Shown here one piece after another: positions 36,225 to 57,852 of a stretch of DNA of 64,000 bases (the first letter of the stretch is position 1; each line of letters opens with the position of its first letter). The position numbers and the translations under genes are program-made. The stretch lies in the IMG/VR virus record IMGVR_UViG_3300045988_096839; one strand, 5' to 3'. A model generated the notes under the pieces. That model saw only the letters and a list, made by a program, of their open reading frames with translations. It was not told where the DNA came from and made no database searches. The DNA is from a virus.

Positions 36225-36278
36225 ACTATCTTATAAAGATAGCCCTCGCGCTTCGAGTTCACTTGAACCCTACTCTAC

Positions 36279-36962
36279 TCACTTCTTCGATTCTTTTGAA
36301 TCTATGCTTTCGATAGTCGTTGCTCCTTCCTTTTGGAACAAAAGGCTTGGATCATGATTGCCTCTTTTGAGGTTTTCCATGAATTCACGAGGTTTTAAAT
36401 CCGCTTGTAACATTTTTTCGTAACTGTTTTTATAAATCCAATAATAACCAAAAGCGGTTTTACATTTCGGATATTTAGATGATAAACACTTATAAATTCT
36501 ACTAGCCTTAGAAATATCAGTGACACTTTTAGCAGCTTCTATCCCGTTAACGTACATGTCTATATAATTTCCATGTAAATCTAATTTAACAATATAGTCT
36601 TTATATACCGGACTATTTATTCCTTTAACATTATACATAGGATTATTTTCACCATCCATATTTTTTCCTAAAACATATCTGCGATGCATTTGGTTTTCAT
36701 ATGGAGTACACCATTCTAAATTCCATACGCAGTTATTAGTTTTATCTCCGTTTTTATGATTTACTTGTGGTTTATTTTCATAATTTGGAATAAACGCTTT
36801 AGCTACTAATATGTGAACTAAATAACGTTTACCATTTATTGATACTCCACAATAACCACTACCGTCCTTGGTACTAGCTAGAACTTTGTTATTACTGTTT
36901 ACAACATAACCTAAATTACTTACATAACAACCTGTATTTTCAATTTGCTTTATTATTTCCAT
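36279..36962 (-). CDS. HNH homing endonuclease, free-standing
   Basis: NHKNGDKTNNCVWNLEWCTPYENQMH is a classic HNH core, with an N-terminal NUMOD4-like YVSNLGYV segment. It is an intact 227-codon ORF in the standard code with no TAG. Ends in TGA. Confidence 0.8.
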   Translation of the reverse strand: MEIIKQIENTGCYVSNLGYVVNSNNKVLASTKDGSGYCGVSINGKRYLVHILVAKAFIPNYENKPQVNHKNGDKTNNCVWNLEWCTPYENQMHRRYVLGKNMDGENNPMYNVKGINSPVYKDYIVKLDLHGNYIDMYVNGIEAAKSVTDISKASRIYKCLSSKYPKCKTAFGYYWIYKNSYEKMLQADLKPREFMENLKRGNHDPSLLFQKEGATTIESIDSKESKK

Positions 36963-37016
36963 AATTTATATTTTACAGATATAACGTAAATAAATTGAAT
37001 ATGTTACTAAAAATGT

Positions 37017-37169
37017 TCATTTGTTTAACGGATTATTCATCCATTGGTTCATACCCATTCCACCATTCATCATTGCCATAGCAGTAAGCGGACTGTTCAT
37101 GTTATTACTAAGTAATGCTGCGGTACCAGTATCAATACCACGGTCGATATAAATTCTATCGTCTATCAT
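37017..37169 (-). CDS. small ORF (50 aa), Met/Gly/Asn-rich
   Basis: Runs from ATG 37167-37169 to TGA 37017-37019 with no TAG. Sequence is MIDDRIYIDRGIDTGTAALLSNNMNSPLTAMAMMNGGMGMNQWMNNPLNK. There is only positional support. Confidence 0.3.
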   Translation of the reverse strand: MIDDRIYIDRGIDTGTAALLSNNMNSPLTAMAMMNGGMGMNQWMNNPLNK

Positions 37170-37197
37170 AATTATTATTGATTAATTTATTTATTGA

Positions 37198-37749
37198 TTA
37201 ATATTTTGAACCAAGTCTTTCACGCATAGGACTTTTACGATATTCATATTCTTTTTCATCATAATCATCGTCATATTCATATCTGCTATAACGAGGTCTA
37301 TGATTCATAGAATATCTTTGTCTTGGAGAATATTCATATTCATTATAATATTCTTCGTCATCCTCTTCGTCATCACGATATAAATCGCACATAACGTACT
37401 TATAATAATACCACATCTTTCCTTCATCAATATCTTTATCTTCCAACCATGCTTTAGCTAAGTCAACAAAGTATTTAATGTTATTAGAATGTAAAGTATT
37501 TGTTATAAACTTATAGTAGTCTGAATAAACCATATTCATCGCTACATACCAGTCATATTTATTATATTTACGAGGATTGAAAGATATACCATATTGATTT
37601 GCTACAGTAGTAGTATCATTAATAGTCCAATGCTGTCCTGTAGTACCATCCTCATTCTCCATCTTAGCTACAACTTTCATTGCGCATTCTTCAGTAAAGT
37701 GAGGACCGTACATACGTTCATGACGTTCAAACTTTCTTTTATCTTTCAT
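37198..37749 (-). CDS. hypothetical protein (183 aa), acidic Tyr/Asp/Glu-rich C-terminus
   Basis: Intact track ORF with no TAG. Ends in TAA. Starts 14 nt after the upstream stop. Confidence 0.55.
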   Translation of the reverse strand: MKDKRKFERHERMYGPHFTEECAMKVVAKMENEDGTTGQHWTINDTTTVANQYGISFNPRKYNKYDWYVAMNMVYSDYYKFITNTLHSNNIKYFVDLAKAWLEDKDIDEGKMWYYYKYVMCDLYRDDEEDDEEYYNEYEYSPRQRYSMNHRPRYSRYEYDDDYDEKEYEYRKSPMRERLGSKY

Positions 37750-37763
37750 ATAATTGATTTATA

Positions 37764-38393
37764 TTATTTATTGTCTATAGTTATCAATCTCGTTTCTTTT
37801 ACTTCTATGAGAGGATTGCTATTATGTATTTGATATTTATATACGTCTCTTTTCTTAAAATCAAAGTGTATCAAACGCCTAAACCAATTTTTATATTGAT
37901 TCTTATATTCTCTTTTATTTGATATAAAAAGCGTTTGAGTATTTTGTATACTAATTTTTGCAGTAAGGATTGAATCCTTTTTAATAATGATTAAGGAGGT
38001 TAATTCATTAGGTTTAATTTCTTTTTCAAAATCTTTATCACCTACAACGATTGTTGTATCTATATTTATTTCTTGATTCTGCGATTGAGCTTGCTTTAGC
38101 TCCTTATCTTTGATTTTTAGTTCTTCTTGAATATTTACAATATCCTAAATTATACTATCATTAGTATTCTTGAACTCATCTATTGTTAAGTTTAGAGTTC
38201 TAATTTCTTTATCTTTATCAGATAACTGTTCCTAATAGAATAGGGTATTATTTGTTATTCGGTCTATCTAACGGTTCTTTTCTTTAATCTGTTTACCCTA
38301 ATAAAAAATTATGGCAGCAAATATCGATATGATAATTACTGCCACAACTTTGATATTTTTCCAGAACCAACCGAAAATAGTTGTTAAAATCAT
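37764..38393 (-). CDS. spanin-like / membrane-anchored coiled-coil lysis accessory protein
   Basis: The frame was reconstructed by hand from ATG 38391-38393 to TAA 37764-37766, with 4 TAG. The N-terminal TM is ILTTIFGWFWKNIKVVAVIIISIFAAIIFY, followed by a long coiled coil. It lies directly downstream of the holin-like gene. Confidence 0.45.
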
Positions 38394-38399
38394 AATTTG

Positions 38400-38870
38400 T
38401 TATTTTATATCTACAACATCTGATAGGTCCACGTCTAAATATTTTTCAGCCTTAGACTTTATTATTTTTGATAAGATTTTTGATAATAATGCATTTGGAT
38501 GTAATGCTCTAAATGATTCCATTAACGATAATCCTTCAGCAGCACATATTGATCCTGCCGCTATTTTTACTGCCGTTAGGTTTTCATAAGTCAGTAAGAT
38601 ATATTTATCTAATAATAATCCTAACGATATTAATATAAAACAATCTCTTAGTTTATATATAGTTTTCCATAATTTATTAGATTCTAACTTATGTCCATAT
38701 TGTTTGGAAACCTTATAACCATAATACGTATCCGCAAATATAAAGCAGAACGCAGTTATCATTACAGGTACAGCCGGAGTAAAGATAGCAGTAAAACTAG
38801 ATATTAATCCTATTAATGCCTAATAACCGTTATTACCGAATCTTTTTAAAAATAACACAATCTATTCCAT
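38400..38870 (-). CDS. holin (phage_holin_4-like)
   Basis: This is track ORF 38400..38762 extended through 2 TAG to ATG 38868-38870. It has several hydrophobic segments plus AAGSICAAEGLSLMESFRALHPNALLSKIL, which resembles the conserved E..S..EN..P..L end of holin family 4. Confidence 0.55.
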
Positions 38871-38942
38871 TAAGTTCTACATGGATTTATTTGATATAAC
38901 CTGAAAAATATTAATGCTAATATACTGTTATAACGTACACGG

Positions 38943-38978
38943 TATAGTATGTTCCAATATCGATTGCAGCATACTATA
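38943..38978. repeat. 9-bp inverted repeat with 18-nt spacer upstream of the holin gene
   Basis: TATAGTATG (38943-38951) pairs with CATACTATA (38970-38978). The spacer contains ATCGAT. It lies in the 129-nt gap between the fibre gene stop (39000) and the holin ATG (38870). Confidence 0.6.
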
Positions 38979-38999
38979 TGTGTAATAGCTGTTTTAAAA

Positions 39000-39647
39000 T
39001 CACGCAGCAGGTGTTTCCAAAGCTTCTACTCTAGCCGTTAAAGCATCAATCAAAGCTTTCAATTGTTTACCTTGAGCAGCGGATAAAGCTTCAGCAGTAG
39101 AGTCAGAAGTTAAAGTATTATTTACTGTTACTTTAGTATCTGACCAGTTAACATTTACAAAAGCTTTATCATTACTATCCAACTGTACTGCGTAATTCTT
39201 ACCCGATGTAGTATAACCAACTTTTATACCACCCAAAGTATCTGCTGTTGCTTTACTAACTGTTGTACTTGGAGCATTAGACCATTGTGCTTCGCCGTTT
39301 GCTTTCCAAGTCAAAATTTGATTTGCACTACCACCAGTAGGTATATGTTTATTACCAGCACTAGTTGGATGAGAATAGTTATTAGCATTGTTTGCAATAC
39401 CTGCTAATTTCTGTTTTTCAGTAGTAGTGTAATCATTTGTTGACAACTACTTACCACTTACTTTATCTACTTTGTTATTGAGAGAATTCTTAATAGCTGT
39501 CAAATCACCACTCTCATCACTTACTTTTACCCAAGAAGAACCATTAAAATATTTAATAGAACCACCATAATGATTCTCTGTCAAATCAACCCAATATTTA
39601 TATTGTGTTGGATTTGGAGCTGTTTTACTTTCTATAAAATTTACCAT
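39000..39647 (-). CDS. fibre protein (tail or head fibre), 215 aa
   Basis: Track ORFs 39000..39446 and 39447..39647 are in one frame, joined by one TAG. Fibre-type motifs are LSTNDYTTTEKQKLAGI and NYSHPTSAGNKHIPTGGSANQIL, with a C-terminal coiled coil. Confidence 0.65.
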
Positions 39648-39657
39648 ATCAATATTT

Positions 39658-39897
39658 TTATAAACATCCTAAACTAATACCAATTAAATTAGAAATAATA
39701 TCTTTTTTATCACATGTACCTTTCTTCATTAATTTATCCCATATAAATTCTTTACCTATTCCAATAACTACTGTTACAATTATTGCTATCCACAAAGGTA
39801 ATATTAATTGCAATAAAGATACTAATAGATTAGAACAAATAATATGTTTTAATCCATCAAAGCCAAAATAATTAAAAATCTTATTTATCATACTCAT
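39658..39897 (-). CDS. small membrane protein (79 aa)
   Basis: Track ORF with two hydrophobic helices. ATGA overlap with the upstream gene. No TAG. Confidence 0.5.
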   Translation of the reverse strand: MSMINKIFNYFGFDGLKHIICSNLLVSLLQLILPLWIAIIVTVVIGIGKEFIWDKLMKKGTCDKKDIISNLIGISLGCL

Positions 39898-40553
39898 ACT
39901 GTTTCAACATATGTTCCAACTAGTGCACTTAAATCATGCGATAAAGGAATACCACTGTTTCTTGTACATTTATACATTACTTTATTCTGTGTGTAATACT
40001 TACCTTCAAATATCTCCATAGGTGGAGTGTAAGGAATTGGGTCTTCTTGTGTTCCAGCATGTTCTTCATCAACTACTTTCCAAAGACTTGCTGTTTCAAG
40101 ACTTGGTTTCCATAACTCTTGAGTAGTATGATTTTGAACTACTTCCCATAACAGATTATCGTATTGGTATCTTTCTCCTTGTTTTACTTCTATTGAATCA
40201 GCTGACCATTCTGGATAGAATTCTTTAACTTCCAATGCTTCATTATTACTTAAAGCCATTGTATTAATATTAGCTTTAGCTTCAGCAGTAAGAATCTCTA
40301 TAGCTTTAATTTTAGCATAATCTTCATTAGGTTGTACATAATTTTCTCCATGAGTCCATTCTTCACTATTCATTAATTCCGTAAATTCAGGACTATCAAA
40401 TTCATATTTTGTAAGAACATTAAATTCATCAATATTCTTTACGTATTCTTCATGTAGAACAACTTGTGTTCCATCTACTGATTGTCTCATTGTTGGAATA
40501 ATTTCGATTCCATGCGTTTTAGCTTGATTAATTGTGCAAATTACAAATTTCAT
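39894..40553 (-). CDS. protein with a C-terminal CBM5/12-like carbohydrate-binding motif
   Basis: YQYDNLLWEVVQNHTTQELWKPSLETASLWKVV fits the aromatic pattern of chitin-binding type-3 (CBM5/12) modules. Intact 219-codon ORF with no TAG. Confidence 0.5.
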   Translation of the reverse strand: MKFVICTINQAKTHGIEIIPTMRQSVDGTQVVLHEEYVKNIDEFNVLTKYEFDSPEFTELMNSEEWTHGENYVQPNEDYAKIKAIEILTAEAKANINTMALSNNEALEVKEFYPEWSADSIEVKQGERYQYDNLLWEVVQNHTTQELWKPSLETASLWKVVDEEHAGTQEDPIPYTPPMEIFEGKYYTQNKVMYKCTRNSGIPLSHDLSALVGTYVETV

Positions 40554-40574
40554 ATTTCTTTTAATTTAATTGGT

Positions 40575-42527
40575 TTAACTTACTTCTATTTCATCTACTC
40601 CGTCAAGGAGATTGTATTTCTTAATTACTGTTTGTATCTGTTCTTCTGTTAGAGCTTCTTTGAAGCCGAGGAATTTATAAAGAGCCATAATAGAATATTG
40701 ATTTTGTCCTAAACTTCTGCCTATATTTGGCTTTCTAGATTCGGATATATCATTTGTTACTACATGAATTAAATGTTTTTTATTAATTAATTCAGAACAT
40801 TTTAGTTTTGTATTTAATATACCATTTATATAAGTCCCATTAATATTTGAAGCACTATATGCTATACTGGTATTATTATAAATAGCAAAATTTTTATTAA
40901 ATGTTGCACTTCTTTGGTCATATAAAATATTATTTCCCTTTGTAAAATTAGCACAAAGCATAAACATAGTCTTAAACCCACTATTAAAAGCATCAAGACT
41001 TATATAATCATCTACACCATCAAATACTAATGCGCCTGGATATTCAGGAATGAATTCAATAGTAATATCACATTCTCCAATATCTCCTAAAATACCAATA
41101 GAATAGTTATATCCCTCTGGGAAAAGACTACTATCTATTTTATGTGTTCCATTAGATAATGATAAAGTAGCAACATTTGGTGGTCCAATTCTTACAAGAT
41201 TATTTCCGGTAATACCAGAAATTTTTATATTAAAATTATTTATTATATAAATATTAATTAGATTTTTATTTACTTCATCAATAATCTTAGTTATATGTGC
41301 CTTATCGTTTGTAAAACTACCTTCATATCTATCAACTCCTGAATTAGAACTAAAATAACAATTATATCCACCATATCCACTCATGCCGCGCCAAGCAAAG
41401 TTATGAGCAACAGCATCATTACCATTACCGCTATAATCTTTTATAGTATTCCTATTTACATCATCATTACTACCTTTACTGAAATCATAATAACAATCTG
41501 GAGTAGGAATCTCAGACGGAAGAAGATATTCAGGGTCAATATATTTACGGATAAATGCTTTTATCTCTTGTTCGTCTAAGCTTCTGTTGAAGAGATAAGC
41601 GGAGTAAAAAGCACCTTTTAGGTAGCGAGGATCTGTACTATTAAGTGCACCAATAGTTATTCGATTAGTATTATCTGATTTATCTCCTACAATTAAATTT
41701 TGTTGATTATATGAATTTTTGTTTTGCCAAGTTATAGTATTGTTTAGTAAAAGATTTTTATTTTGTCCTTGACCATAATTATAAGTGTTAGAAGTAAATC
41801 CATATCCTTCTAAAATAAATGCGCCATTTGTATTTACCCCTTTTGTAAACAAACATCCACCACTACAATCTTTTCTTTTTACTATAATTGTATAATCTTC
41901 AAGTAATGGAATATTTGTACAAAATCCATAATCATTAACTCCGTCAAATACAAGAGCATCGGGGTAATTAGGAACAACTTCTATAGTAATATTACATTCT
42001 CCTATAAATCCACACATTATACATGATGCATAAGAATTATTTTTAGTCCAATCTACTTCGTACTCTCCATCAGTTGTTATTGTTAATATAGAAATAGAAC
42101 CAGTATCACTTCCTAATATAACAGATTGACCATCTGTTAAACCTTGTACTTTATACTTTTGCTTTTTATTTTTCATAGTAGATTGATTACTATTTGATGT
42201 ATAAAGTATAGCTTTATTAATTATATGACAAGATAATATATTTATTTTATATGGACTTATAATATTGAATGTACCTGAATCACCTTTATTCCATACCGAT
42301 AATTTAGTAGTATATTCTCCATATCCACTACCTGATTCATTAAAAGCAAATCCATTCAAAGTAATATCATGTCCGTTACCAGTCAAATCTTTAAGAGTTG
42401 CTCTATCTTTATCATCATTAGTCTTACCTTTGGCTGACCATGCGGCAATAAGCCCTGGGTAATTTATATTTCCGTCACTCCTTTTTAGAGCATTGGCTAT
42501 CATAAGCCTTCGTCTGTACATACTCAT
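40575..42527 (-). CDS. receptor-binding protein with two tandem LamG / concanavalin-A-like lectin modules
   Basis: There is an internal duplication. GECNITIEVVPNYPDALVFDGVNDYG matches GECDITIEFIPEYPGALVFDGVDDYI, and KDLTGNGHDITLNGFAF matches KDYSGNGNDAVAHNFAW. LVFDGxxDY is the LamG_3 hallmark. 650 codons with no TAG. Confidence 0.6.
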   Translation of the reverse strand: MSMYRRRLMIANALKRSDGNINYPGLIAAWSAKGKTNDDKDRATLKDLTGNGHDITLNGFAFNESGSGYGEYTTKLSVWNKGDSGTFNIISPYKINILSCHIINKAILYTSNSNQSTMKNKKQKYKVQGLTDGQSVILGSDTGSISILTITTDGEYEVDWTKNNSYASCIMCGFIGECNITIEVVPNYPDALVFDGVNDYGFCTNIPLLEDYTIIVKRKDCSGGCLFTKGVNTNGAFILEGYGFTSNTYNYGQGQNKNLLLNNTITWQNKNSYNQQNLIVGDKSDNTNRITIGALNSTDPRYLKGAFYSAYLFNRSLDEQEIKAFIRKYIDPEYLLPSEIPTPDCYYDFSKGSNDDVNRNTIKDYSGNGNDAVAHNFAWRGMSGYGGYNCYFSSNSGVDRYEGSFTNDKAHITKIIDEVNKNLINIYIINNFNIKISGITGNNLVRIGPPNVATLSLSNGTHKIDSSLFPEGYNYSIGILGDIGECDITIEFIPEYPGALVFDGVDDYISLDAFNSGFKTMFMLCANFTKGNNILYDQRSATFNKNFAIYNNTSIAYSASNINGTYINGILNTKLKCSELINKKHLIHVVTNDISESRKPNIGRSLGQNQYSIMALYKFLGFKEALTEEQIQTVIKKYNLLDGVDEIEVS

Positions 42528-42528
42528 A

Positions 42529-42978
42529 TCAAGCCCCTCCCAATACAGCTATATTGTTTATGATAGATACCTGATAAGTCTTGCTTGCTTCAATGGTGTT
42601 GCTACCTATCCACTTTACGCTTTCAGGTAATGTCAAAGTAGTAGGAGTTGTTCCAGAAGTAAACTCAAACATATATTCAGACAATTTATTTTCTTCTCCT
42701 GCTGCTAAAGTCAAAGTGAGTGTTTCCATCTCACCAAAGATGTAATATTTATTTGGTTGTAATTCTTTTGTATTCTCTGATACATTTTCTACAGATACTT
42801 TATTAGCTTTTGAAGATAATTCTGTTTTAGTTGCTAACTATCCTACATCGGGAATATTATTTGCATTTGTGTTAACCCCATCGACTAGTTCATCTATCTT
42901 CTGACTTATCTGATTCATTTCAGTAGCTTGTAATACTTGTTCTGAAATGAAAGTTTTATTTAATTTATTTATTGCCAT
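42529..42978 (-). CDS. fibre-associated protein (149 aa)
   Basis: This is track ORF 42529..42729 extended through one TAG (42838) to ATG 42976-42978. The N-terminus has a fibre-like coiled segment. TGA 42529 abuts the next ATG. Confidence 0.5.
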
Positions 42979-42979
42979 A

Positions 42980-43357
42980 TTATCTTATTTTATCAATGTT
43001 TAGTTTACCTATATCTAATTTTAAATACTATTCGATTGGAGAAGTTTCAAATAATATTGTAACTTTATCTCCTAACTGATTTAATTCAAATGTATCGGGA
43101 TTAATATTATTGTCTGAATTTAGATAAAATTCTCCTAATACACAGTTACCATCTATAGAATACAAATCAAGATGTAATATATAATCATTACTAGTTTTTA
43201 ATAATTTACCTTCTATTCTACCAGATGTATTAATTACAAAACTATATGAATCTTCAGTAAAATCAAATGGTGTAGCCATTTGTATATATGATAATTCAGG
43301 TATAGTTAAGTATGCCTATGGATTTATGAATAAAGGTCTCGTAAATATTGATTTCAT
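42980..43357 (-). CDS. hypothetical protein (125 aa)
   Basis: This is track ORF 43028..43279 extended both ways through TAG 43028 and TAG 43316. It runs from ATG 43355-43357 to TAA 42980-42982. Confidence 0.45.
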
Positions 43358-43372
43358 AATATTTCTTTATTT

Positions 43373-43921
43373 TTAATTTTTCAAAATATATCCAGTACAA
43401 TTAATTTGCCCTACGGTACTACCAAAATTACAATTAACACCATACCCAAAACTAGTTTGATCCCTATTAGTAATTGTAGCTCTCATATTTGTGGTATTAT
43501 ATGAAACACTACAATTGCTTGTTCCGATTACATTCCGCACTGAGAAATTTAGAGTTTGTTCTTTATAATTAATATAATGTATAGACATATAATAATTTAT
43601 ATATAATTCGATAACAACATTCCAATTATTATCAGTTACCTCAACCAAATATTCATCATTTCCAGCATCTGTTACAATAGCATTACTTGCATGAAATACA
43701 GGTTTATAAGTATATGACTAAAAAATTAATTTAAAACTACCAATTACATTTTTTATATAATTCCCTTCTGGTACAAGACGGTTGCTAGCATAATTTTCTA
43801 CACCATTAATTCCTGTACAACCTAGTGCTTCCATTCGTTGTTTAGTACAACATTTATTTGCAACCGGAGTATCTTTTTTACCTACGTCATAAACATCTTG
43901 TTCTGTAGCAATTTTACTCAT
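43373..43921 (-). CDS. hypothetical protein (182 aa)
   Basis: Track ORFs 43373..43648 and 43718..43921 are in one frame, joined by one TAG. Ends in TAA. Confidence 0.5.
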
Positions 43922-47051: not shown

Positions 47052-47055
47052 ATTA

Positions 47056-47514
47056 TTAACCGTTAAATTCTACTAATTTTGTTTTATTATCCGTAGTATA
47101 AGCATCAACGTGAACCCAAGTTACATCTCGTTCCAATCTTATCGGATATTCAAATTTATCAATATTAGAACGTATAAGATTTCTCACTTCTTCTGCAGAC
47201 ACATCATTAACGGTAAAGTCAATAGCTTTTCCTAGTCCGTGAGCGGTCATGTATATCCTATTAGAATTAGTTTTATCTTTACATAACTAACATATATTAC
47301 ATCTCAATCCTCTTTGTGTTAGATTATTATCATAAGAATTAATAATCATTGGTTTCTTAATTATTTGAGTACGTAATGTATAAATAATGCTCAGTAGTTC
47401 AGTTGAAATGAACTACCAAGCATTATCTCCAAAAGTATTAACACAATGAGGACAAACTAATTCTTTCAACTAAAAATACTTTTTAACTTCTTTAATTAAT
47501 TCGTCTCTTTCCAT
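47056..47514 (-). CDS. endolysin, peptidase M15 (VanY / L-Ala-D-Glu peptidase-like)
   Basis: This is track ORF 47056..47250 extended through 3 TAG to ATG 47512-47514. TAHGLGKAIDF (H..G.A.D) and TWVHVD supply the Zn ligands. The upstream Cys-containing segment is typical of Peptidase_M15_3. Confidence 0.7.
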
Positions 47515-47518
47515 AATA

Positions 47519-47803
47519 TTATTCTTTTATTTCTTCTGCTGTTGGTTTATTTTCATTAACAGTATCTTCAAATGCCTTTTGAACAAATGCTTTAAAACCT
47601 TTTTTAAGAATATCTTTTATTCTTTCAATCTGTTCATCTGTTAATTCAACTTCACCGTTTTTATAAATATCTTGAGCTAAAATTAAATCTTCAAGATTTT
47701 GTGTTTCGCTATAAATAAAATTAGCTACTTGCTTAGAACAATCTAAAGGTAATTTATTACCTTCAAGATCTGTCATCATTAACTGTTTAAAATTTATTTT
47801 CAT
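47519..47803 (-). CDS. hypothetical protein (94 aa)
   Basis: Intact track ORF with no TAG. Ends in TAA. Confidence 0.5.
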   Translation of the reverse strand: MKINFKQLMMTDLEGNKLPLDCSKQVANFIYSETQNLEDLILAQDIYKNGEVELTDEQIERIKDILKKGFKAFVQKAFEDTVNENKPTAEEIKE

Positions 47804-47816
47804 CGTTTCTTAATTT

Positions 47817-49937: not shown

Positions 49938-50167
49938 TTGTTTATATTTTTTATAAGTTTTTGAACTATATGCTGTTGTTCTTTAGTAAGTGATGCGTAT
50001 TCCATAAACCACTGACAAAATGATGTACAGACATAATTTAAAATCTCTTCTGAATTATAATCAATATTGTATTTTACAATTTTATTTAATTTCTTACCAT
50101 AATTGTATAATTGCTCATCTTTTGTTGTATACACATGTCCCATTTTTGCAAGTATTACATTCAACAT
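49934..50167 (-). CDS. hypothetical protein (77 aa or shorter)
   Basis: Track ORF with no TAG. Its first 53 nt overlap the end of 50115..50639 in another frame. An internal ATG at 50141-50143 would shorten the overlap. Confidence 0.4.
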   Translation of the reverse strand: MLNVILAKMGHVYTTKDEQLYNYGKKLNKIVKYNIDYNSEEILNYVCTSFCQWFMEYASLTKEQQHIVQKLIKNINK

Positions 50168-50639
50168 TTTGATTGTTTATATAACACGGACCATCCAATA
50201 ATCTCATCAGATCTACATAACTACTTACTATTTCTTCTATACTGTTATTAAATGATAAAGCATTATAGAATAAACTTAATCTAAATGAGCACATTAAGAT
50301 TCGTTCTTTTTGAAGTTTATCCAAACAAGTATTACAATAAAATTTTAATAATTTATAAATATCTTCATCTAATTTTTTAGAGTTATATGCGAAACGATGA
50401 TTATTATTTTCAGTAAAAATTATAGCACTTACATCTAAATCAGATATATCTATACTATATCCGTATTCTTCCTTCTAAAAGTCTTCGAACGTTATTACTT
50501 TAGTATGATTGGATGCTTCTTCAGAATGTACATTATCGATATTGCATACTTTGTCTAAGAACATTGTCTATGTAATTTCTTCACTAGACGTAATTATAAC
50601 CAACTTTTGATTTTCTATATAAATATATTTAATTTCCAT
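50115..50639 (-). CDS. hypothetical Cys-rich protein (174 aa)
   Basis: This is track ORF 50115..50324 extended through 2 TAG to ATG 50637-50639. CNTC ... CYINNQNVECNTCKNGTC suggests a small zinc-binding element. Confidence 0.5.
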
Positions 50640-50651
50640 AATTAATAAATT

Positions 50652-50688
50652 AAAAAAGGCGAAGCCGAGGATTACCCTCAACCTCGCC
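50652..50688 (-). terminator. strong strand-specific rho-independent terminator
   Basis: The minus-sense RNA is GGCGAGGUUGAGG-(loop)-CCUCGGCUUCGCC followed by UUUUUU. It has a 13-bp stem that needs three G-U pairs, so it forms only in the minus sense. It lies 25 nt after the stop of 50713..51699. Confidence 0.75.
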
Positions 50689-50712
50689 AGAGTTATAAAG
50701 AAACTTTGAAAA

Positions 50713-51699
50713 TTATTCTTCTGCAGTACCTGAAATAAAGCTCTTCAAGTTCTTATAGAATCGTGAACTTGACAAAGAACCTGATTTAACGTATACTTCA
50801 GTAGTAAGAGGAGTAGACTTAACATACTGATTATCACAGCTCAAGTAAGAATTATCATTTTCAATAGTAAGATAATCATATGTAGTACCTTCCTGTACAT
50901 TACGTTTCTGTTCAATTACTGGATAAGCATCAGTAAATACATGACCTTTATAACCCATGCAACGCATTTCACGGTCACGCACTTGCTTCCAATAACCTTT
51001 ACCAGGATTACCATCAGTCTTAGTCATCGTCATACCAGGAACAGTTGCAGGAACGTTAGATAACAATGCACCAGGAATAGTTACATAGATAGAAGCTTCC
51101 ATACATACTACTGTATATTCATTAATAGAATATACTCCTTTGTTATCATCTTTTTCTAAAGCTGTCAAAGTCAATTTGTTACCTGAACTAGTAACAGATA
51201 CACGACGATTCTTATGAGCATTGATCTGTTTAGCAAAAGCATCACACAAATCCTGAGGAGTTTCTGTCTGAGCAATTACTTCATAAGTATGAGTAAACTG
51301 ACCCGGAGCTTCATACAAATCTTTATAAACAATACGTAATACATATCTATGACCAATAACAATTTCTGCACTAGCCATATTGAACTCAATCTTTTCCTAA
51401 ACAGGAGCAGAATAAGCCTGCATTACGCTATTCAAATTTTTACCTTTCTGGATTTCATTAGAAAATTCAATTTCTTTCTTATCTTCCAATGCACCAGTTT
51501 GAGGGTTAACTACTTTCATAGTACCTTTGCAAACACCTACATAAACAGAGTTTGCTGCTACTGATTTTTCACCATCAGTAAGGATATTTTTATTTTCATC
51601 AAACAATGCTACTTCACCTACATTCAAAGCATCTGCTGTAGAATAACTAGCTGGGCAAGCAGCATTTGCGATCATTACACTATCAACTCTTGTAATCAT
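50713..51699 (-). CDS. abundant structural protein (328 aa), role unknown
   Basis: Track ORFs 50713..51378 and 51397..51699 are in one frame, joined by a single TAG. It is visibly less AT-rich than its neighbours. It has a roughly 108-nt upstream gap and its own strong terminator. Confidence 0.6.
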
Positions 51700-51807
51700 T
51701 TTTTAATTTATTAATTTGTTAGACTTCGCGCCAGTCTTCGCTCTATTCTTCTACTTTCCTATTTACTAAGTAAATTAATTTCCACGTCGAATAAGCGCAT
51801 TAATTTA

Positions 51808-52536
51808 TTATTCCATTACTTGTGTTTCCTAAGCAAGTAAATTATAATTCTGTGTTGGTTTATTTGTCGCATATAATCTGACTGCTAATTTAACAATCTC
51901 CATATGCGTATGTGATGGCAATTCTGTATATTCCTAAGATAAATCATCATTAGTAAATATACCTTTTGGTTTACTTAAATATACTAAATTATATTCTGCA
52001 ACTTTATAATTACCATCTGTATATAAAACAATGTTGTTACCTTGAATCAATTTTAAAGGTCTTGCATAACAATGTTTTAATTTGTGTTCAGATAAAGAAT
52101 TAGATAATTGTCTATCTATGGTTTCAATAGTTGATTCTAAAGTATCTACATTTTTCACTATATAATTGTTGTCAGAATCTTTCTTCCAGCAATCATTAAT
52201 GATACCATCTGCAGGACTTATTCCAGCTGTATCTCCAAGTAAGATAGTATAATCTTCTGGAAGTTCTACAGTATATTTAGGATTATTATTAATTATTTCT
52301 GTAGTATACTTTTTATTTCTAATCAAAGTACGTAAATCATCTATTCTTTTCTGTGATTGTTCAAATCCTTCTTGTTTAGTATTTAAACCAGAATATCTTG
52401 TTTTCCAAAAAAGATCAATAGCTTCATTTAATATAGAAAACAACTAATCAGATGTTAACTTATTTTCAGCTACTAATTTAGCGTCATTCAATTGGAGTCT
52501 ACGTTCCAATTCAATCTACATTTCACGTTTCGTCAT
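51808..52536 (-). CDS. head-tail connector-like protein (242 aa)
   Basis: This is track ORF 51934..52443 extended through 4 TAG. It runs from ATG 52534-52536 to TAA 51808-51810. The C-terminus HMEIVKLAVRLYATNK resembles the end of gp6-like connector proteins. This is a weak call. Confidence 0.45.
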
Positions 52537-52537
52537 A

Positions 52538-53245
52538 TCATTCCTCCATTTGAATTAGTTGACTCTTTGTTGAAAATCTTTGTGATTCTATATTTTCTAA
52601 AGCTAATTGTACTGCTCTATTAACAACTTCGTACCATGTTTGATCCGGTAATTCACTCAAACCTAAATCAGATGGTAAATTGTTAATTAAACACGGATGT
52701 TTGATGTATGTCAAATCTAATCGATATTCATCCGCATTCATTGATATCGGATCATAATATATTTTTAAAGTATTATTTTCAATAACACCAACTGGATTAT
52801 CTATCCAAGGTATATTATTATTAGTCTTTATAAAATTCTTTATCTGTGTATGATCCAATAATTTTACAGTAGCACAATTATCTTTTCCATCTTTAATCCA
52901 GTGAAATACAGAAGATACATAAAACATTCTTCCTCTATTATTAGTCTATCTGTTTAGAAGATTTACTAACGATGCGCAATTTGTATTTTCACTAGCATTT
53001 AGTTTTAAAGACTCATCTGTTCTAATAAGTCTATCAAAATCAGAGATACGTTTTACATCACCTTCAAATTTTACTTCGTTTTCAGTACCACCTGTAAACT
53101 TTGTCATAAGTAATGCATAGTATCCTTTATTTATCCAATAATCTATTTCAGCGTCAATAAATGCAGGTACACCACCGTATGCTACACTATTAGAGTTTTT
53201 GTCTAATTCTACTTTAAAGGCTATATGTAATTCGTCTCTATTCAT
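52538..53245 (-). CDS. head-tail adaptor-like protein (235 aa)
   Basis: Track ORFs 52538..52927 and 52946..53245 are in one frame, joined by one TAG. Ends in TGA. WYEVVNRAVQLALENIE is adaptor-like. This is a weak call. Confidence 0.45.
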
Positions 53246-53247
53246 TA

Positions 53248-54000
53248 TTACTTAGATTTAATTTCTTTAAGTATTGCTAAATAAATATCTTGGTTCTTCT
53301 TATCTTTAAGATAAGCAATAACGTCATCAACACCATTACCGATAACATCTGTACCAAAATAATAAGTAGCTCTATTCTTTCTAATAATATTTTTACTCAA
53401 AGCTTCTTCAATTACAAAACTATATTCTTTATCAGGATTTTCAATCCAAATACTGATAAATTTGGCAGGATTCTTTTCTACGTTTTCTGTAAGTTTAGCT
53501 TCTACTACTTCATTAGACAAAGTATCAGATTTAACACCGAACAGACGTAAACACTTACGCATATCATCCAATGTCATCTTATCCAAAGCACGATAAGCTT
53601 CACGTTTAGTTTTATTATATTTATTCTGTTCTGTAGCTTCAAGATCTTTATCTACGATTACATAATCTGTTTTAGGACTAATCTTACTTACTCCATCTGC
53701 AACGTGTTTATGATTCTTTAGAAACAAATATTGTAATTCACCTTCAGGAGTATCGGTGTTTATAATAAGTTCTTTTCTACCAATTTTAACAGCAAAAGTA
53801 TCCCAGAAAGAACTATCTGGATCTAAATGACCCAACGGTAATCTCATTTTTTCTTCTAATTCTCTTGCTTTCTACGTAGTTAAACCTGTATATCTACTAC
53901 CTGATCTAGTCCAATATGAACTAATAAAATCGAAACATTTATCCCATTTAATCAATCCTGTCCAAGGATTTGTTTTTGTCATTCTAACGATTACTTCCAT
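53248..54000 (-). CDS. hypothetical capsid-module protein (250 aa)
   Basis: This is track ORF 53248..53847 extended through one TAG (53872) to ATG 53998-54000. Ends in TAA. Confidence 0.5.
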
Positions 54001-54025
54001 AATTATATTTAATTAGATTATCTAG

Positions 54026-55108
54026 TTAGTTATTAATAATTTCTTTTACCCCGTAACCAGTAGGCATTTCTCCGCCTAAGTATTTTTTAATGGTTCTGAA
54101 GTCAGATCTTAAATATTTTTCTAAAGCCCTAATACCTTCTATTCTGATAGGAGTATCAGAAAGTGTAGTATTGTGAACTTCAAATATTCTGATTCTTTTT
54201 GTTGCAATAATATCTCTTAATTCTTCATAGTCTATTACTTTTCTATCTTCTTCTTTACCGTACTTCCAATTAAATCTTCTACGGATTGCCGGAACTTTAT
54301 TTATATACTCTGGGTCATTAATATATTTTCGTATAGTACAACCAGAAATACCTGATGCCTTGGATGCGTCTGAAATACTACCATATTTTGCAATTAAATT
54401 ACCTTTTAAATCATATTGTTCTACGGGAGTAGATAAACCATTCATGTCACCATTTTCGACTATTCTTAAAGCTCGTTTGCGTTTGAATTCTTCAGATTGT
54501 TTGGGAACATAATTTAAATTCATGTAATAGTCTTTTATATTTATTTGCAATTTGATATCTTCTCTGTTATCTGGAGATAATATCCAAACATAAGGATTCT
54601 TTTTAGATGGTTTCATCGCTTGTTTACGAAGTATTCTGTAAATAGACGTTTTAGATATGCCAGTATCTTCGGATGCTGCTTCTATACTAGGATATTCTTT
54701 AACAAATATACCATTTATGTCATATTGAAGTATAGGCTTTCTGTTTTCTGAAATTTTTCCTCTATGAAGAATACCTATTTTTTCTTTAGTTTCATCTGAT
54801 TGAAATCTAACTCCTCCGCCTAGCTTGTTGTTATATCCTATTTCAGGATTGGTTGCACCAAGTAAAACTATCCAATAATTCTCACGCTCGTTCATATGAG
54901 CTAAATCTTTGCATAGTTCAATAGTTTCTATTTTAAAATTATTTTCGCCATACTCTCGTATCGCATTGCAGATAGCCGTTGTGCCACCACCATTTGCTTT
55001 AATTACGTGTCTTCTAAATCTGTATGACGCGCCTTCAGTAGTGGCACCAACGTATATCTTGTTATTAACCAAATTGGTCAATTTATAAATTTCGTAGATC
55101 TTTTCCAT
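54026..55108 (-). CDS. GIY-YIG homing endonuclease, free-standing
   Basis: The N-terminal IYKLTNLVNNKIYVGAT...RFRRH...ENNF...E is the GIY-(x10)-YIG / R / E catalytic pattern. Two HTH-like repeats follow (ISKTSIYRIL and ISGCTIRKYI). 360 codons with no TAG. It sits between the putative major capsid gene and the next capsid-module gene. Confidence 0.8.
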   Translation of the reverse strand: MEKIYEIYKLTNLVNNKIYVGATTEGASYRFRRHVIKANGGGTTAICNAIREYGENNFKIETIELCKDLAHMNERENYWIVLLGATNPEIGYNNKLGGGVRFQSDETKEKIGILHRGKISENRKPILQYDINGIFVKEYPSIEAASEDTGISKTSIYRILRKQAMKPSKKNPYVWILSPDNREDIKLQINIKDYYMNLNYVPKQSEEFKRKRALRIVENGDMNGLSTPVEQYDLKGNLIAKYGSISDASKASGISGCTIRKYINDPEYINKVPAIRRRFNWKYGKEEDRKVIDYEELRDIIATKRIRIFEVHNTTLSDTPIRIEGIRALEKYLRSDFRTIKKYLGGEMPTGYGVKEIINN

Positions 55109-55179
55109 AATTAATATTTTAGTTATACTTTATATAACGTCAAAATATTAATTATGTTGATATTTTACCTAGAAAAAAT

Positions 55180-56646
55180 TTACTCGCTTAGCATGATAAG
55201 TTCTCCGCAAGCTCTAGGATCTCTAAGCATTATACCCATTTCACCTAAGAAATGAACAGAATAGCCATCCTTAGCGTTACTACGAACTTCAGTATTAGAA
55301 TGAGCGTAACCTGCAGGAGTTACAGAACCAGCCGTACACCAGTTAACGAATTCACGGTCTTTACGAACAACCTTAACAATGTTAGCTTCACCATCACGAC
55401 GACCAAGGTCAAGGAATGTCATACGATATGATTCCAATGGTTTCAAAGTAATCGGATGCAACTGACGGTTGTAAGTAGTATTGTCATACAACGGGAAATA
55501 CTTCAAAGTAAGTTCAATACCGTTAGACATCTTATAAGTCTTGAACTGACCACCAAATGTCAAATTGTCACCAGAACCAGTTACGAATACAGTATCGATA
55601 AGATTCATGTTAGCCATCTTTTCTTTCAATACTCTATCGAACTCACGCATACCCATTTCACCAGTCAATGCAACAAACTTACGTTCGTTAGTACCAAGTA
55701 CATTGTATGACAAGTCTGACAAGAAGTCTTCGAGCAATTCAGCAGTCAAACGAGTATAGAAACGTCTGTTAGACGGAGCAATCTGTTCAAGTAAACCAGC
55801 ACCGATGAATACCGGACGACCGTTAGCACCTTTCAGATTACAAGAACCATCACGGTTAACATTACTTACATTGTAAACTAAAGCACGTTCAATACGCTTA
55901 TACCATTCACGCATAGCAACCCATTCCTGGAAAGTAGACCACAAATAAGAAGTCTTACCTGATTTAGGATCTTTCAAAGCAACTGCCATTACAGTAGAAT
56001 AAGCTGAACCAGTAATATCATAAGAAAGACGTACTGTCGTAAGATAGTTACGCATCTTGAAATGAGTATTATAGTTCAGGATATCAGCCTGTTCACTATA
56101 TTCTTCATATGCAGAAGCAAGACGAGATACCTGACAACCTGGTTTTAAAACAGACGGATCGATATAAGATGCAGGATTACCATTAGAAACAAATACGGTA
56201 TAAACATACAAGCTACCATCCTGATACGGAGCATCTGATACACGTACCTGGCTCTTGTCATCAAGTTCCAAAGTAGCACCTGGACCAAACCAGTTATCTT
56301 CCAACCACAACTGAATCGGAGTGTTGTTCAAACCAGCAGTAGTAGTATCTGAAATAGTTGCGCCATTCCATTTTGCATCACGGATTGTAACTGCACGATC
56401 TTGATCAATCATTACACCCCATTCGAAAGAAGGCTGATCGATAACCATTACGTTACCAAGACCACCAGTAAGCATATCCAAAGATGTTGTGTAACCATTA
56501 TCTTTTGTACCAAATACGTATGATAAAATAGTTGATACTTCATACGGTCTCTACTGTGAAGCGATTGAAATCTTATTAGTATCAATCAAATCACTAAACC
56601 ATTTTCCTTTATATAAAACTAATGAATTTAAGATATTGTTATCCAT
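55180..56646 (-). CDS. putative major capsid protein (488 aa)
   Basis: This is track ORF 55180..56481 extended through its single TAG (56551) to ATG 56644-56646. It lies directly downstream of the acidic scaffold-like gene in the TerL-portal module. It is less AT-rich and almost TAG-free, as expected for a very abundant protein. The assignment rests on position and size only. Confidence 0.55.
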
Positions 56647-56691
56647 AATATTTTATTAATATTTCAATATTGAATTTTTAATTATTTTAAA

Positions 56692-57852
56692 TTAAGATAT
56701 ACGCAATCTTCTTGTAAAACTATCCCATATAGTATCACTATTTGAATCTCTTCCGGAGGTGTTTCTAGATTTTGAATTAACCGTAGTATTTTTTAAGCTA
56801 TCTTTAAACTTATTAATTGCGGTATTATTTCCTTCTCTTTTGGCAGCATTTATTAACTTATCAGCATTCATTGTGAAATATGCAGATTCAATTAAATTCT
56901 TTACACCACCTTTAGCATAATCCTTCTGATATTTTGTTTTACCATCAGAATCAGGTTTAAGGATATAATCCATCAAAACCTTTTTATCCTTTTCTGGGAT
57001 TGCGATTCCGCGTATATTTTTTAAGTTCTTTATTTCCGTGACAACGTTATCACAGAAATCCTGTTGTCTTTGACGATACTGCTCATAAGCTCTTTTCTGT
57101 TCTGCCAATAGCTGTTCTTTCTTCTGTTCTTTAATCTCTTTTAAATCTTCTATGGCATCTTGGGCTTCATCTTCGAGAAGTCCGGCGTCGATATACTTAG
57201 ATATCTTCTTGTCGATCTGTTTTTCATTAAAACCTTTTTCTCTAAGTAGTGACTTAACTACAAGCTTCTGATTAGTTTCATCGTCTAAATCTATTTCATC
57301 TAAATCTAATTCTGCATCAATCTGTAAATATTTAGCTAAATCTCCACCCTGTTTAACATAATTATCAAGAGCTTCAATTTCTTCACTAGCGTACTGAGGT
57401 TTACTGTCTTCTTCAATTACTTTACTAAAATAATTAATCAGATCTTCTACATTCTTTGGCTTTTCTTCATCAGTTACATCTGCCCATTCTAACTTTTCAG
57501 CAATAGCATCAAAGAAATTAGTCACCATCTCTGTTTCATTATCATCAAGATTGATTTGATTTTTAGGTTCATCACCATTTTCATCTGGTTCATCTTTCTT
57601 CGGATCAACAACGTTATCATTGTCATCGTTATCCTTATCAGGATCTTGTTCTTCAGAAGTTGTTTTGATTTTCCCTTCTTTCTTCATCTTAGCGACAATA
57701 GGATCTTCTACTTTCTTGTTTTCGTCATCATCGTCGTCATCATTAACTTTATTTTCAAAGTTCTCTAACTCAAGTTCTTGTTCTGTTTTAGGGATAAAGC
57801 TGTCAATAATTGTTTCAAATCCACCTAAAACATTTGTTTCTTTCTTTTCCAT
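56692..57852 (-). CDS. acidic coiled-coil protein, scaffold-like (386 aa)
   Basis: Track ORF trimmed to ATG 57850-57852. It has poly-Asp/Glu runs (DDDDDDE, DKDNDDNDN) and a Gln/Lys/Glu-rich coiled coil. No TAG despite about 17 canonical Gln codons. Confidence 0.5.
   Translation of the reverse strand: MEKKETNVLGGFETIIDSFIPKTEQELELENFENKVNDDDDDDENKKVEDPIVAKMKKEGKIKTTSEEQDPDKDNDDNDNVVDPKKDEPDENGDEPKNQINLDDNETEMVTNFFDAIAEKLEWADVTDEEKPKNVEDLINYFSKVIEEDSKPQYASEEIEALDNYVKQGGDLAKYLQIDAELDLDEIDLDDETNQKLVVKSLLREKGFNEKQIDKKISKYIDAGLLEDEAQDAIEDLKEIKEQKKEQLLAEQKRAYEQYRQRQQDFCDNVVTEIKNLKNIRGIAIPEKDKKVLMDYILKPDSDGKTKYQKDYAKGGVKNLIESAYFTMNADKLINAAKREGNNTAINKFKDSLKNTTVNSKSRNTSGRDSNSDTIWDSFTRRLRIS

Follow-up and report, generated by a model that had tools for sequence, protein, structure and literature searches.

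How does a phage that reads a stop codon as sense distribute that codon among its late genes, and what sets the number in each? This question is raised by a 64,000-nucleotide stretch of viral DNA (the window; IMG/VR record IMGVR_UViG_3300045988_096839). In crAss-like phages that use genetic code 15, in-frame TAG occurs only in the block of structural and lysis genes and is abundant in lysis and tail genes; it is missing from genes on the opposite strand, and a tRNA(CUA) is found in relatives (Yutin et al. 2021, PMC7886860; Borges et al., 10.1101/2021.08.26.457843; Peters et al. 2022, PMC9523058). The phage studied here has these features in common with them, including a Suoliviridae-type genome of about 97–99 kb, and does not differ categorically from known code-15 recoding; our findings are an incremental refinement of that biology.

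The recoded late-gene block

A late-gene block of a crAss-like phage, Suoliviridae-like and nearest to the record cr6_1, fills positions 4309 to 64000 on the minus strand, and all of its genes end in TAA (26) or TGA (13). When TAG is taken as sense, the longest open reading stretch grows from 658 to 5053 codons and holds the gene of a giant virion RNA polymerase (RNAP) protein (5047 amino acids counted from the first ATG), the coverage by open reading frames (ORFs) rises from 50.4 to 72.8 kb, and the products match Pfam crAss families. Between near-identical strains, TAG is exchanged with CAG 24 times and with CAA five times, together 29 of 40 differences, and the remaining 11 lie in hypervariable or non-coding stretches. 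These sequence comparisons support the reading of TAG as glutamine in the late block; mass-spectrometric proof comes from other crAss-like phages only (PMC9523058).

The suppressor tRNA(CUA) gene is absent from the window. In the near-identical strain L004, and also in cr6_1, L006, L050 and L058, it lies upstream of the large terminase (TerL) gene, and by synteny that of the window phage would sit just past position 64000, upstream of the terminase gene. On the plus strand, the ORFs of 12..4228 stay open when read with the standard code and represent early or replication genes without in-frame TAG.

4309..64000, minus strand: late-gene block with TAG as glutamine; 183 in-frame TAG in 19,548 codons
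59888..63999, minus strand: portal gene (TAG/CAA/CAG 7/43/13; 7 TAG in 831 codons) and partial TerL gene (9/10/2), low-copy comparison genes

TAG density differs between late genes

The original prediction, made from this DNA alone, listed hand counts of TAG and held that TAG density varies greatly between late genes. All of the counts were reproduced exactly on TAG-sense ORFs, and the variation is confirmed (G=128, 37 df, Monte Carlo p<5e-5). The heterogeneity amounts to G=101.6 per codon and 126.6 per glutamine codon (df 38, Monte Carlo p<5e-5), and it survives splicing of a split gene and still holds when the two most extreme outliers are taken out (G=87, df 35). Only the RNAP gene (low) and 33719..34189 (high) are individually significant after BH correction.

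9690..24833, minus strand: giant virion RNAP protein; 32 TAG in 5047 codons and 271 glutamine codons, significantly low in the window
28690..32820, minus strand: muzzle protein; TAG/CAA/CAG 17/29/5; 17 TAG in 1376 codons

The cr6_1 RNAP gene is not TAG-low (57/240). That the low-copy giant RNAP is TAG-poor in the window runs against the view that TAG is costly. The gene 28690..32820 had been labelled tail hub-like; the label is wrong, as the 1376-residue product of strains L165 and L166 carries PF25731 (crAss_MUZ), which identifies the muzzle protein. Elsewhere in the block, 4309..9687 has 22 TAG in 1792 codons, the gene starting at 34960 has six, and the variable tail-fibre gene 43914..47105 is TAG-rich (17 of 49 glutamine codons). 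TAG is absent from the scaffold-like gene, 40575..42527, 39894..40553, the GIY-YIG and HNH endonuclease genes, and 37198..37749.

Most TAG-free genes are explained by low glutamine content

These TAG-free genes had been read as islands within the recoded block, with a permutation test proposed as the refutation. The islands fail it: their number is that expected from glutamine content. There is no excess of zero-TAG genes (10, with 7.5 expected given glutamine content, P=0.15; 9 and 6.8 after correction, P=0.19). The probability of finding no TAG is 0.022 for the scaffold gene, 0.034 for the LamG-like gene, 0.105 for the CBM-like gene, 0.26 for GIY-YIG, 0.33 for HNH and 0.51 for DUF7841, and multiple-test correction leaves no TAG-free gene individually significant. 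Measured per codon, the longest TAG-free runs comprise 1120 codons (39452..42837, P=0.0035) and 860 codons (53877..56550, P=0.039); counted in glutamine codons, the longest run is 29, which is not significant (P=0.22). For most of the TAG-free genes, low glutamine content is enough to account for the lack of TAG.

Capsid-class genes avoid TAG across lineages

55180..56646, minus strand: major capsid protein (MCP; PF23898, E=3.8e-206); TAG/CAA/CAG 1/1/11; 1 TAG in 488 codons
50713..51699, minus strand: auxiliary capsid protein (AuxCP); TAG/CAA/CAG 1/2/9; 1 TAG in 328 codons
56692..57852, minus strand: acidic, putative scaffolding protein, encoded immediately upstream of the capsid gene; TAG/CAA/CAG 0/6/11

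The homologues P0019 and P0043 of 50713..51699 (64–70% identical) exceed the cut-off of PF25650 (crAss_AuxCP). The product of 56692..57852 has no family match, and its putative assignment as a scaffold draws on position and composition only.

Pooled over 15 dereplicated lineages, TAG makes up 0.031 of the glutamine codons in MCP, 0.022 in AuxCP and 0.093 in the putative scaffold, and 0.18–0.50 in the portal, terminase and tail-ring proteins. The capsid-class genes lie below the other late genes in all 15 lineages (sign test p=6e-5), and even when measured against CAA, TAG is depleted in them (odds ratio 0.15, p=2e-11), pooled p-values being optimistic because the compared lineages share ancestry. 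The capsid genes are CAG-rich (8–14 CAG each) and have 0–1 TAG in every lineage. The proposal that the most abundant proteins nearly avoid TAG is thus borne out clade-wide, the comparison giving it stronger support than the window itself, where TAG share and a glutamine-independent codon-bias index are uncorrelated (Spearman −0.18, p=0.42). MCP has the strongest codon bias in the window, and no other gene of the block is as biased in composition (GC 0.367, 4-mer z=3.9). In the T=9 capsid of crAss001, each asymmetric unit contains nine MCP and nine auxiliary capsid proteins; cargo proteins are present in up to 12 copies and RNAP proteins in about 6 (PMC10172136).

This near-absence of TAG from the capsid, AuxCP and scaffold genes across lineages is new relative to the code-15 crAss-like literature with which we compared it. 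The original prediction suggested that decoding capacity might be limiting. This idea sits uneasily with the 32–57 TAGs of the giant RNAP genes, which imply that suppression must be very efficient and thereby also weaken a simple cost of a leaky codon.

TAG is concentrated towards gene 5′ ends

Within genes, TAG lies nearer to the 5′ end than CAA and CAG, both in the window (P about 0.01; 18 of 24 genes) and in relatives (P<2e-4); by gene-length quintile, its share is 0.31, 0.22, 0.17, 0.16 and 0.16. We did not find this bias in the code-15 crAss-like studies compared, and regard it as new.

TAG-rich lysis and tail genes

33719..34189, minus strand: small protein encoded between the genes of tail ring proteins 1 and 2 (phrog_12177); all 8 glutamine codons are TAG; 8 TAG in 156 codons
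37764..38393, minus strand: spanin-like protein; 4 TAG in 15 glutamine codons and 209 codons
38400..38882, minus strand: holin (PF05105); 3 TAG in 4 glutamine codons
47056..47514, minus strand: probable endolysin (weak Peptidase_M15_3 match); 3 TAG in 5 glutamine codons and 152 codons

The counterparts of 33719..34189 have TAG/CAA/CAG of 8/0/0 in five other strains and 5/3/1 in cr6_1, and the cr6_1 orthologue of 47056..47514, annotated as an endolysin, has 5/1/0. In four lineages, the 33719 family (21/31, 0.68), the spanin-like family (34/59, 0.58) and ring protein 2 (27/57, 0.47) prefer TAG. TAG enrichment in lysis and tail-ring genes has already been published by Borges et al., who tested enrichment only, not depletion (10.1101/2021.08.26.457843). 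By kind of gene, the four TAG-preferring families here (spanin-like, endolysin, ring protein 2 and the small 33719..34189 protein) appear comparable to their preferentially recoded lysis-cassette families, and their 'tail tube' family, which lies two genes downstream of the spanin, probably corresponds to ring protein 2. Unlike in those families, individual significance within our single window is limited to 33719..34189.

Homing endonucleases and a group I intron

36155..37027, minus strand: group I intron of 873 nt that interrupts the phrog_16490 gene; the last base is T in the 5′ exon and G in the intron
36279..36962, minus strand: predicted HNH homing endonuclease ORF inside the intron (PF13392, E=1.6e-8; phrog_59); TAG/CAA/CAG 0/5/0
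35466..37169, minus strand: split gene phrog_16490 (exon 1, 37169..37028; exon 2, 36154..35466)
54026..55108, minus strand: predicted free-standing GIY-YIG and NUMOD1 homing endonuclease (PF01541, PF07453); TAG/CAA/CAG 0/6/0

We assign 36155..37027, on sequence grounds, as a group I intron carrying a homing endonuclease ORF. A match to RF00028 at 36192..36453 on the minus strand (76.5 bits, gathering 50; E=2.6e-19) was missed by whole-window scans, and the 873 nt are exactly absent in strains L083 and L086. Splicing would restore one ORF, with a predicted product of 276 amino acids (TAG/CAA/CAG 1/10/10), 274 of which match P0241; the phrog_16490 family has a TAG share of 0.05 and is high in CAG. 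Among strains the HNH intron is present, absent or deleted for its ORF, and most near-identical strains lack it. The RF00028 core, the HNH ORF within the intron and the precise presence or absence among strains resemble the introns of Delta-group (Suoliviridae) crAss-like phages (Yutin et al. 2021), from whose host genes (MCP, PolB, primase, as well as ATP_43b) phrog_16490 differs.

The GIY-YIG endonuclease carries two NUMOD1 domains and lies downstream of the capsid gene, where the group I intron model finds no match; its domains and intergenic place beside a core gene resemble those of T4-type free-standing endonucleases. An endonuclease ORF, of many types, occupies this capsid-adjacent site in 53 of 80 related loci, and the GIY-YIG protein has diverged to about 33% identity among them. 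TAG content at this site is bimodal: 13 clusters have none in 103 glutamine codons, with about 30% CAG, and 3 clusters have 44% TAG. These two states are likewise new with respect to the code-15 crAss-like reports compared.

The original prediction held that the mobile genes are entirely standard-code, as if recently acquired. For endonucleases as a class this fails: in the clade they have 63 TAG in 333 glutamine codons (0.19) and are not depleted, relatives of the HNH ORF have 14 in 42, and the absence of TAG from both endonucleases of the window is not significant (joint P=0.086). Recent acquisition holds for the HNH ORF, given the absence of its intron from most near-identical strains, and is wrong for the GIY-YIG gene, a long-resident element as its occurrence in 53 of 80 loci and its divergence indicate.

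A TAG-free cassette exchanged between strains

39658..42527, minus strand: TAG-free three-gene cassette, swapped between strains
39658..39897, minus strand: small membrane protein
39894..40553, minus strand: CBM-like protein
40575..42527, minus strand: lectin-like protein with two predicted jelly-roll domains; TAG/CAA/CAG 0/14/1

Two of these genes had been named LamG and CBM. The CBM label has a weak CBM_5_12 match only (E=0.012). The product of 40575..42527 matches no Pfam or PHROG family at E up to 10, so that the LamG name falls; a lectin-like fold is suggested by its AF2 model (mean pLDDT 68), which gives low global TM-scores and local Foldseek matches to a trans-sialidase lectin-like domain (probability 1.00, 177–192 columns) and to botulinum toxin Hc. 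Its place among fibre genes and strain-level allele swapping suggest that it may bind receptors.

Five distinct cassette alleles in one species have 2 TAG in 71 glutamine codons (P=2e-5). The alleles are 56–73% identical between flanks that are 95–100% identical, and segments of cassette DNA are 86–97% identical to phage contigs containing no TAG; the swapping and these segments support the proposed exchange with TAG-free phages. The k-mer comparison proposed as a check finds nothing unusual in the cassette relative to its flanks. The tail-fibre gene 43914..47105 is equally variable and TAG-rich; exchangeability by itself is therefore no predictor of TAG absence.

What sets the TAG content of late genes

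Highly expressed phage and bacterial genes favour preferred codons, and the cost of a nonsense error depends on its position. The late block resembles such translational selection: its most abundant proteins use the favoured CAG, and the presumably costly codon is avoided and better tolerated towards the 5′ end. What would set it apart from the ordinary case is that this codon is a reassigned stop, whose decoding by a phage tRNA presumably has to compete with host release factor 1.

The likelier account, in our judgement, is a code-15 late block in which expression cost, gating, module exchange and chance together set the TAG count. A phage suppressor tRNA with anticodon CUA would make TAG a third glutamine codon, and the main source of new TAGs would be CAG, through one C-to-T substitution, which the AT-rich genome favours. 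If TAG is slow or termination-prone, selection would remove it in proportion to the protein made, and the capsid and auxiliary capsid proteins, at roughly 500 copies, would like the putative scaffold keep CAG and almost no TAG; near the 5′ end TAG would be tolerated because a truncated product wastes less. The TAG-richness of a few small tail-ring and lysis genes agrees with a published proposal in which TAG would hold back or gate their synthesis. Exchanged modules (the cassette and the intron-borne HNH ORF) would arrive TAG-free and CAA-rich and gain TAG slowly, and small or glutamine-poor genes (DUF7841, and HNH and GIY-YIG singly) may lack TAG by chance.

It is unlikely that timing decides instead, with TAG-free late-block genes needing translation ahead of the suppressor tRNA or without it, and TAG-rich genes locked until it is abundant. 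The bimodal capsid-adjacent endonucleases do look like two selected states, and Borges et al. (10.1101/2021.08.26.457843) proposed gating of lysis genes and reported a TGA-rich intron endonuclease. However, the clearest TAG-poor genes encode capsid, auxiliary capsid and scaffold proteins, which by their nature are made late; the suppressor tRNA gene stands at the head of this block, on its strand, and HNH relatives often carry TAG.

We consider it improbable that gene age alone accounts for the pattern, TAG content measuring residence in a recoded genome through neutral CAG-to-TAG drift, free of selection on expression. The TAG-free mobile genes are CAA-rich and CAG-poor, which leaves few one-step routes to TAG, and the cassette has segments in common with TAG-free phages. 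Yet the capsid genes are core, vertically inherited and rich in CAG while staying at 0–1 TAG, the MCP-adjacent endonuclease is old and still TAG-free, and the 5′ bias within genes is not explicable by age.

Equally improbable is random placement of TAG among glutamine codons, with islands and extremes as sampling noise: it agrees with the number of zero-TAG genes, the longest run in glutamine codons and the lack of individually significant TAG-free genes, but as a full explanation it is refuted by the very strong heterogeneity, which persists without the two outliers, and by the same genes being low or high in 15 lineages despite TAG/CAG turnover between near-identical strains. Chance is still the best explanation for DUF7841, and for HNH and GIY-YIG singly in the window.

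An extension of the favoured account, which we offer tentatively, is that TAG acts as a graded dial and not a simple lock, its number and position setting both how much of each late protein is made and when: capsid proteins would have none, most genes would carry it towards the front, and a few ring and lysis genes would be saturated with it. Endonucleases would then have two selected code states, the TAG-free ones working in any host or phage code at any time and the TAG-rich ones in late infection only, and TAG content would date the residence of a horizontally acquired module in a recoded genome.

For annotation, standard-code gene finders call the TAG-free genes correctly and fragment their recoded neighbours, and introns such as 36155..37027 can give a single gene the appearance of three. 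Recoding of stop codons in gut phages has been viewed as a gate on late and lysis genes. The purging of TAG from capsid genes, its 5′ concentration and its absence or abundance in endonucleases suggest that reading TAG is costly and tuned gene by gene, which gives testable predictions for the few culturable recoded crassviruses.

Reassignment of TAG to glutamine in the late block

When TAG is read as sense, the minus strand of the window forms an unbroken gene array from 4309 to 64000, and the longest open stretch extends from 658 to 5053 codons, with the product of the giant virion RNA polymerase (RNAP) gene measuring 5047 residues from its first ATG. Pfam models identified the following late-block features.

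55180..56646, minus strand: crassvirus major capsid protein (MCP)
28690..32820, minus strand: muzzle protein, assigned via a strain carrying an identical gene
Late block: tail ring proteins 1, 2 and 3/4
Late block: holin
Late block: GIY-YIG endonuclease with NUMOD1
Late block: HNH endonuclease

The closest annotated phage is cr6_1 (Suoliviridae, Afonbuvirus), which has a 90% identical capsid protein and the same gene order, and near-identical strains were found in IMG/VR, Logan and ENA assemblies. In comparisons of these strains, TAG is matched by CAG in 24 cases and by CAA in 5; the 11 remaining differences fall within hypervariable or non-coding sequence. TAG thus encodes glutamine, as already published for this phage group (PMC7886860, PMC9523058). 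The window contains no tRNA gene. In cr6_1 and the near-identical strain L004, a tRNA with the anticodon CUA directly precedes the terminase gene (L001:25904-25977; L004:393-465); by synteny, a suppressor tRNA(CUA) should head the late block of this genome just past the right end of the window (position 64000). The base at position +4 differs weakly between TAG and CAG (p=0.08), and we therefore see no clear anti-termination context.

Six plus-strand genes (12..4228) are intact under the standard code, placing the end of the recoded block at the convergent junction near 4228/4309. A related lineage with an 87% identical capsid protein (L060, L061 and L062) has few TAGs and many CAGs (TAG/CAA/CAG of 4/19/40 in portal and 3/8/10 in TerL), and may be in the process of gaining or losing the recoding.

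Depletion of TAG in capsid-class genes

The 39 late genes (19,548 codons) contain 183 TAG, 560 CAA and 165 CAG codons, and every per-gene TAG count of the original prediction was reproduced. TAG use is uneven across genes, both per codon (G=101.6) and per glutamine codon (G=126.6; df 38, Monte Carlo p<5e-5), and remains so once an intron-split gene is corrected and the two most extreme outliers are excluded (G=87, df 35). Only the giant RNAP gene (low) and 33719..34189, in which 8 of 8 glutamine codons are TAG, are individually significant after correction.

The proposal that abundant proteins avoid TAG was borne out. In the window, TAG:CAG is 1:11 in MCP, 0:11 in the scaffold-like gene, 1:9 in 50713..51699 and 1:10 in the gene of the phrog_16490 protein, whereas TAG exceeds CAG in tail and packaging genes. 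The product of 50713..51699 is an auxiliary capsid protein, as its 64–70% identical homologues exceed the Pfam crAss_AuxCP cut-off. The asymmetric unit of the T=9 capsid of crAss001 has nine copies each of the capsid protein and the auxiliary capsid protein; the same study gives at most 12 copies for cargo proteins and about 6 for RNAP proteins (PMC10172136). From 80 related loci spanning the capsid gene, dereplication at a capsid nucleotide identity of 96% left 15 lineages, and the TAG share of the capsid class was below that of the other genes in all 15.

Pooled TAG share of glutamine codons by gene family across 15 lineages
Auxiliary capsid: 0.022
MCP: 0.031
Scaffold-like: 0.093
Portal: 0.18
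53248 family: 0.21
52538 family: 0.30
Ring 3/4: 0.33
TerL: 0.35
50115 family: 0.38
57863 family: 0.50

In the capsid class, TAG is scarce even against CAA, the other non-preferred codon (odds ratio 0.15, p=2e-11), indicating more than a preference for CAG. The sole TAG of the window's capsid gene is CAG in two related strains (L003 and L004). Since TAG and CAG turn over between near-identical strains, lasting depletion in capsid genes implies selection. Of all window genes, the capsid gene is the most strongly biased in codon usage and composition; across the whole set, TAG share did not correlate with a glutamine-independent codon-bias index (rho −0.18, p=0.42).

The phrog_16490 protein is as TAG-poor and CAG-rich as the capsid proteins, with 4 TAG and 38 CAG among 80 glutamine codons in the window and its relatives, a profile that hints at high expression. 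It has a predicted N-terminal hydrophobic helix followed by a Q/N/A-rich helical body; its AF2 model (pLDDT 41) was unusable. PDB sequence searches with the spliced phrog_16490 protein and the products of 50713..51699 and 33719..34189 returned no matches, and PHROGs did not assign a function to the scaffold-like protein, the lectin-like protein or several others.

TAG position and TAG-rich genes

In 18 of 24 window genes, TAG is shifted towards the 5′ end relative to the gene's own CAA and CAG codons (permutation P about 0.01), and this bias survives the omission of any large gene. Across the 14 other lineages (within L006-L081), the first fifth of genes has a TAG share of 0.31, against 0.16 for the last three fifths (permutation within genes, P<2e-4, with the first 30 codons left out). 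This pattern fits that expected of a codon carrying some premature-termination risk, the same cost argument as for the avoidance of TAG in capsid proteins.

At the other extreme, family TAG shares reach 0.68 for 33719..34189, 0.58 for the spanin-like gene, 0.47 for ring protein 2 and 0.43 for the 34960 gene, and endolysin is likewise TAG-rich across lineages. The TAG richness of lysis and tail families largely restates the findings of Borges et al. (10.1101/2021.08.26.457843). Pattern searches seeded with a single ring protein 1 sequence retrieved close strains only and a two-sequence alignment added one further clade, so that the 24–48 kb half was tested on four lineages. The gene at 33719..34189 (phrog_12177), between ring proteins 1 and 2, lacks CAA and CAG altogether, and five other strains share this all-TAG state; cr6_1 has TAG/CAA/CAG of 5/3/1.

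TAG-free genes and glutamine content

The original prediction also described TAG-free islands within the block. The permutation on glutamine content that this prediction had set as its own refuting test accounts for them: 10 genes lack TAG where 7.5 are expected (P=0.15), or 9 where 6.8 are expected after correction of the split gene (P=0.19). Taken gene by gene, the probability of zero TAG lies between 0.022 (scaffold) and 0.51 (DUF7841), and none is significant after correction. The longest TAG-free stretch, 39452..42837, is exceptional when counted per codon (1120 codons, P=0.0035) and ordinary per glutamine codon (29 codons, P=0.22), because the region is glutamine-poor. The heterogeneity and the capsid-gene depletion are statistically sound, whereas the claims of TAG-free islands and of standard-code mobile genes are overstated.

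HNH gene within a group I intron

The HNH gene lies within an 873-nt insertion (36155..37027, minus strand) that L083 and L086, two near-identical strains, lack exactly. It scores 76.5 bits against the group I intron model of Rfam, well above threshold; the match emerged only from a scan restricted to 1.4 kb, while Rfam scans of the whole window returned nothing. The intron separates exons 37169..37028 and 36154..35466 and makes the phrog_16490 late gene look like three ORFs; its removal fuses the 50-codon ORF 37017..37169 with 35466..36154, yielding a predicted 276-residue product identical at 274 of 276 positions to unsplit database proteins. Within one phage species, the site occurs in three states: intron-less, with an HNH-bearing intron, and with an intron from which the HNH ORF is deleted (intron-site states at L166:15523-15704, L165:8869-9600 and L083:8970-9080).

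The HNH gene is a recently arrived mobile element, in line with the original prediction. Since it has just five glutamine codons, the absence of TAG from it is uninformative (P=0.33). A pattern search of IMG/VR found no close relatives of the HNH protein, and its best matches in the phage collection were 33–42% identical. In L165, the HNH stop codon TGA is changed to CGA, and a TAG three codons further along is the first stop-like codon to follow.

Exchange of the lectin-like cassette

Genes flanking the cassette (39658..42527) are 95–100% identical between strains, whereas the lectin-like alleles are 56–73% identical or replaced by a fused variant; five distinct alleles together have 2 TAG in 71 glutamine codons (P=2e-5). 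Segments of the window's lectin-like gene are 86–97% identical in DNA to the related contigs L084/L085, L087 and L088/L089. The fetched stretches of L085, L087 and a further contig, L167, contain no TAG, as stop or sense, and that of L088 has a single TAG stop; the L167 stretch includes holin and amidase genes, and its cassette proteins are 61–64% identical to those of the window. Segments common to TAG-free stretches, together with allele swapping, therefore support the suggested exchange with TAG-free phages. Composition does not set the cassette apart: in the k-mer comparison proposed as a check, neither the cassette nor the intron nor the GIY-YIG gene deviates (|z| below about 1.4), and only the capsid gene stands out. 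The 'LamG' label found no sequence-family support, although a moderate-confidence model suggests a resemblance to concanavalin-like lectin domains.

In L087, a 104-kb contig, the lectin-like gene (7900-9650) is spread over three reading frames with TAA and TGA stops between the pieces, and may reflect a pseudogene, an assembly error or frameshifting. The neighbouring tail fibre gene of the window (43914..47105, with a Peptidase_S74 chaperone domain) is as variable as the cassette (74–92% identity between strains), yet is opposite in TAG content (17 of 49 glutamine codons).

Bimodal TAG content of capsid-adjacent endonucleases

The GIY-YIG gene is free-standing, with no match to an intron model around it, and old. 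In 53 of the 80 loci (L003-L082), the capsid gene is followed about 80–850 nt downstream by an endonuclease ORF, with divergence down to about 33% identity. Thirteen of the 16 clusters of this ORF have 0 TAG in 103 glutamine codons and the other three (L063, L064 and L076) have 17 in 39, with no intermediates, a bimodality explained by neither chance nor recency. Clade-wide, endonucleases are not depleted of TAG (63 of 333 glutamine codons, share 0.19), ruling out the proposition that all mobile genes are TAG-free.

Discussion

We propose that TAG, as an extra glutamine codon, would be supplied mainly by CAG-to-TAG transitions, and that selection against it would scale with expression and with position in the gene. 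The cost behind such selection may stem from release-factor competition, tRNA supply or timing. A few lysis and tail genes are enriched in TAG, as already described, and modules circulating among recoded and non-recoded phages would gain TAG slowly; in small, glutamine-poor genes, TAG density would be plain sampling noise. The number of TAGs that giant RNAP genes carry speaks for efficient suppression. Our finding is an incremental refinement of the known biology of code-15 phages.
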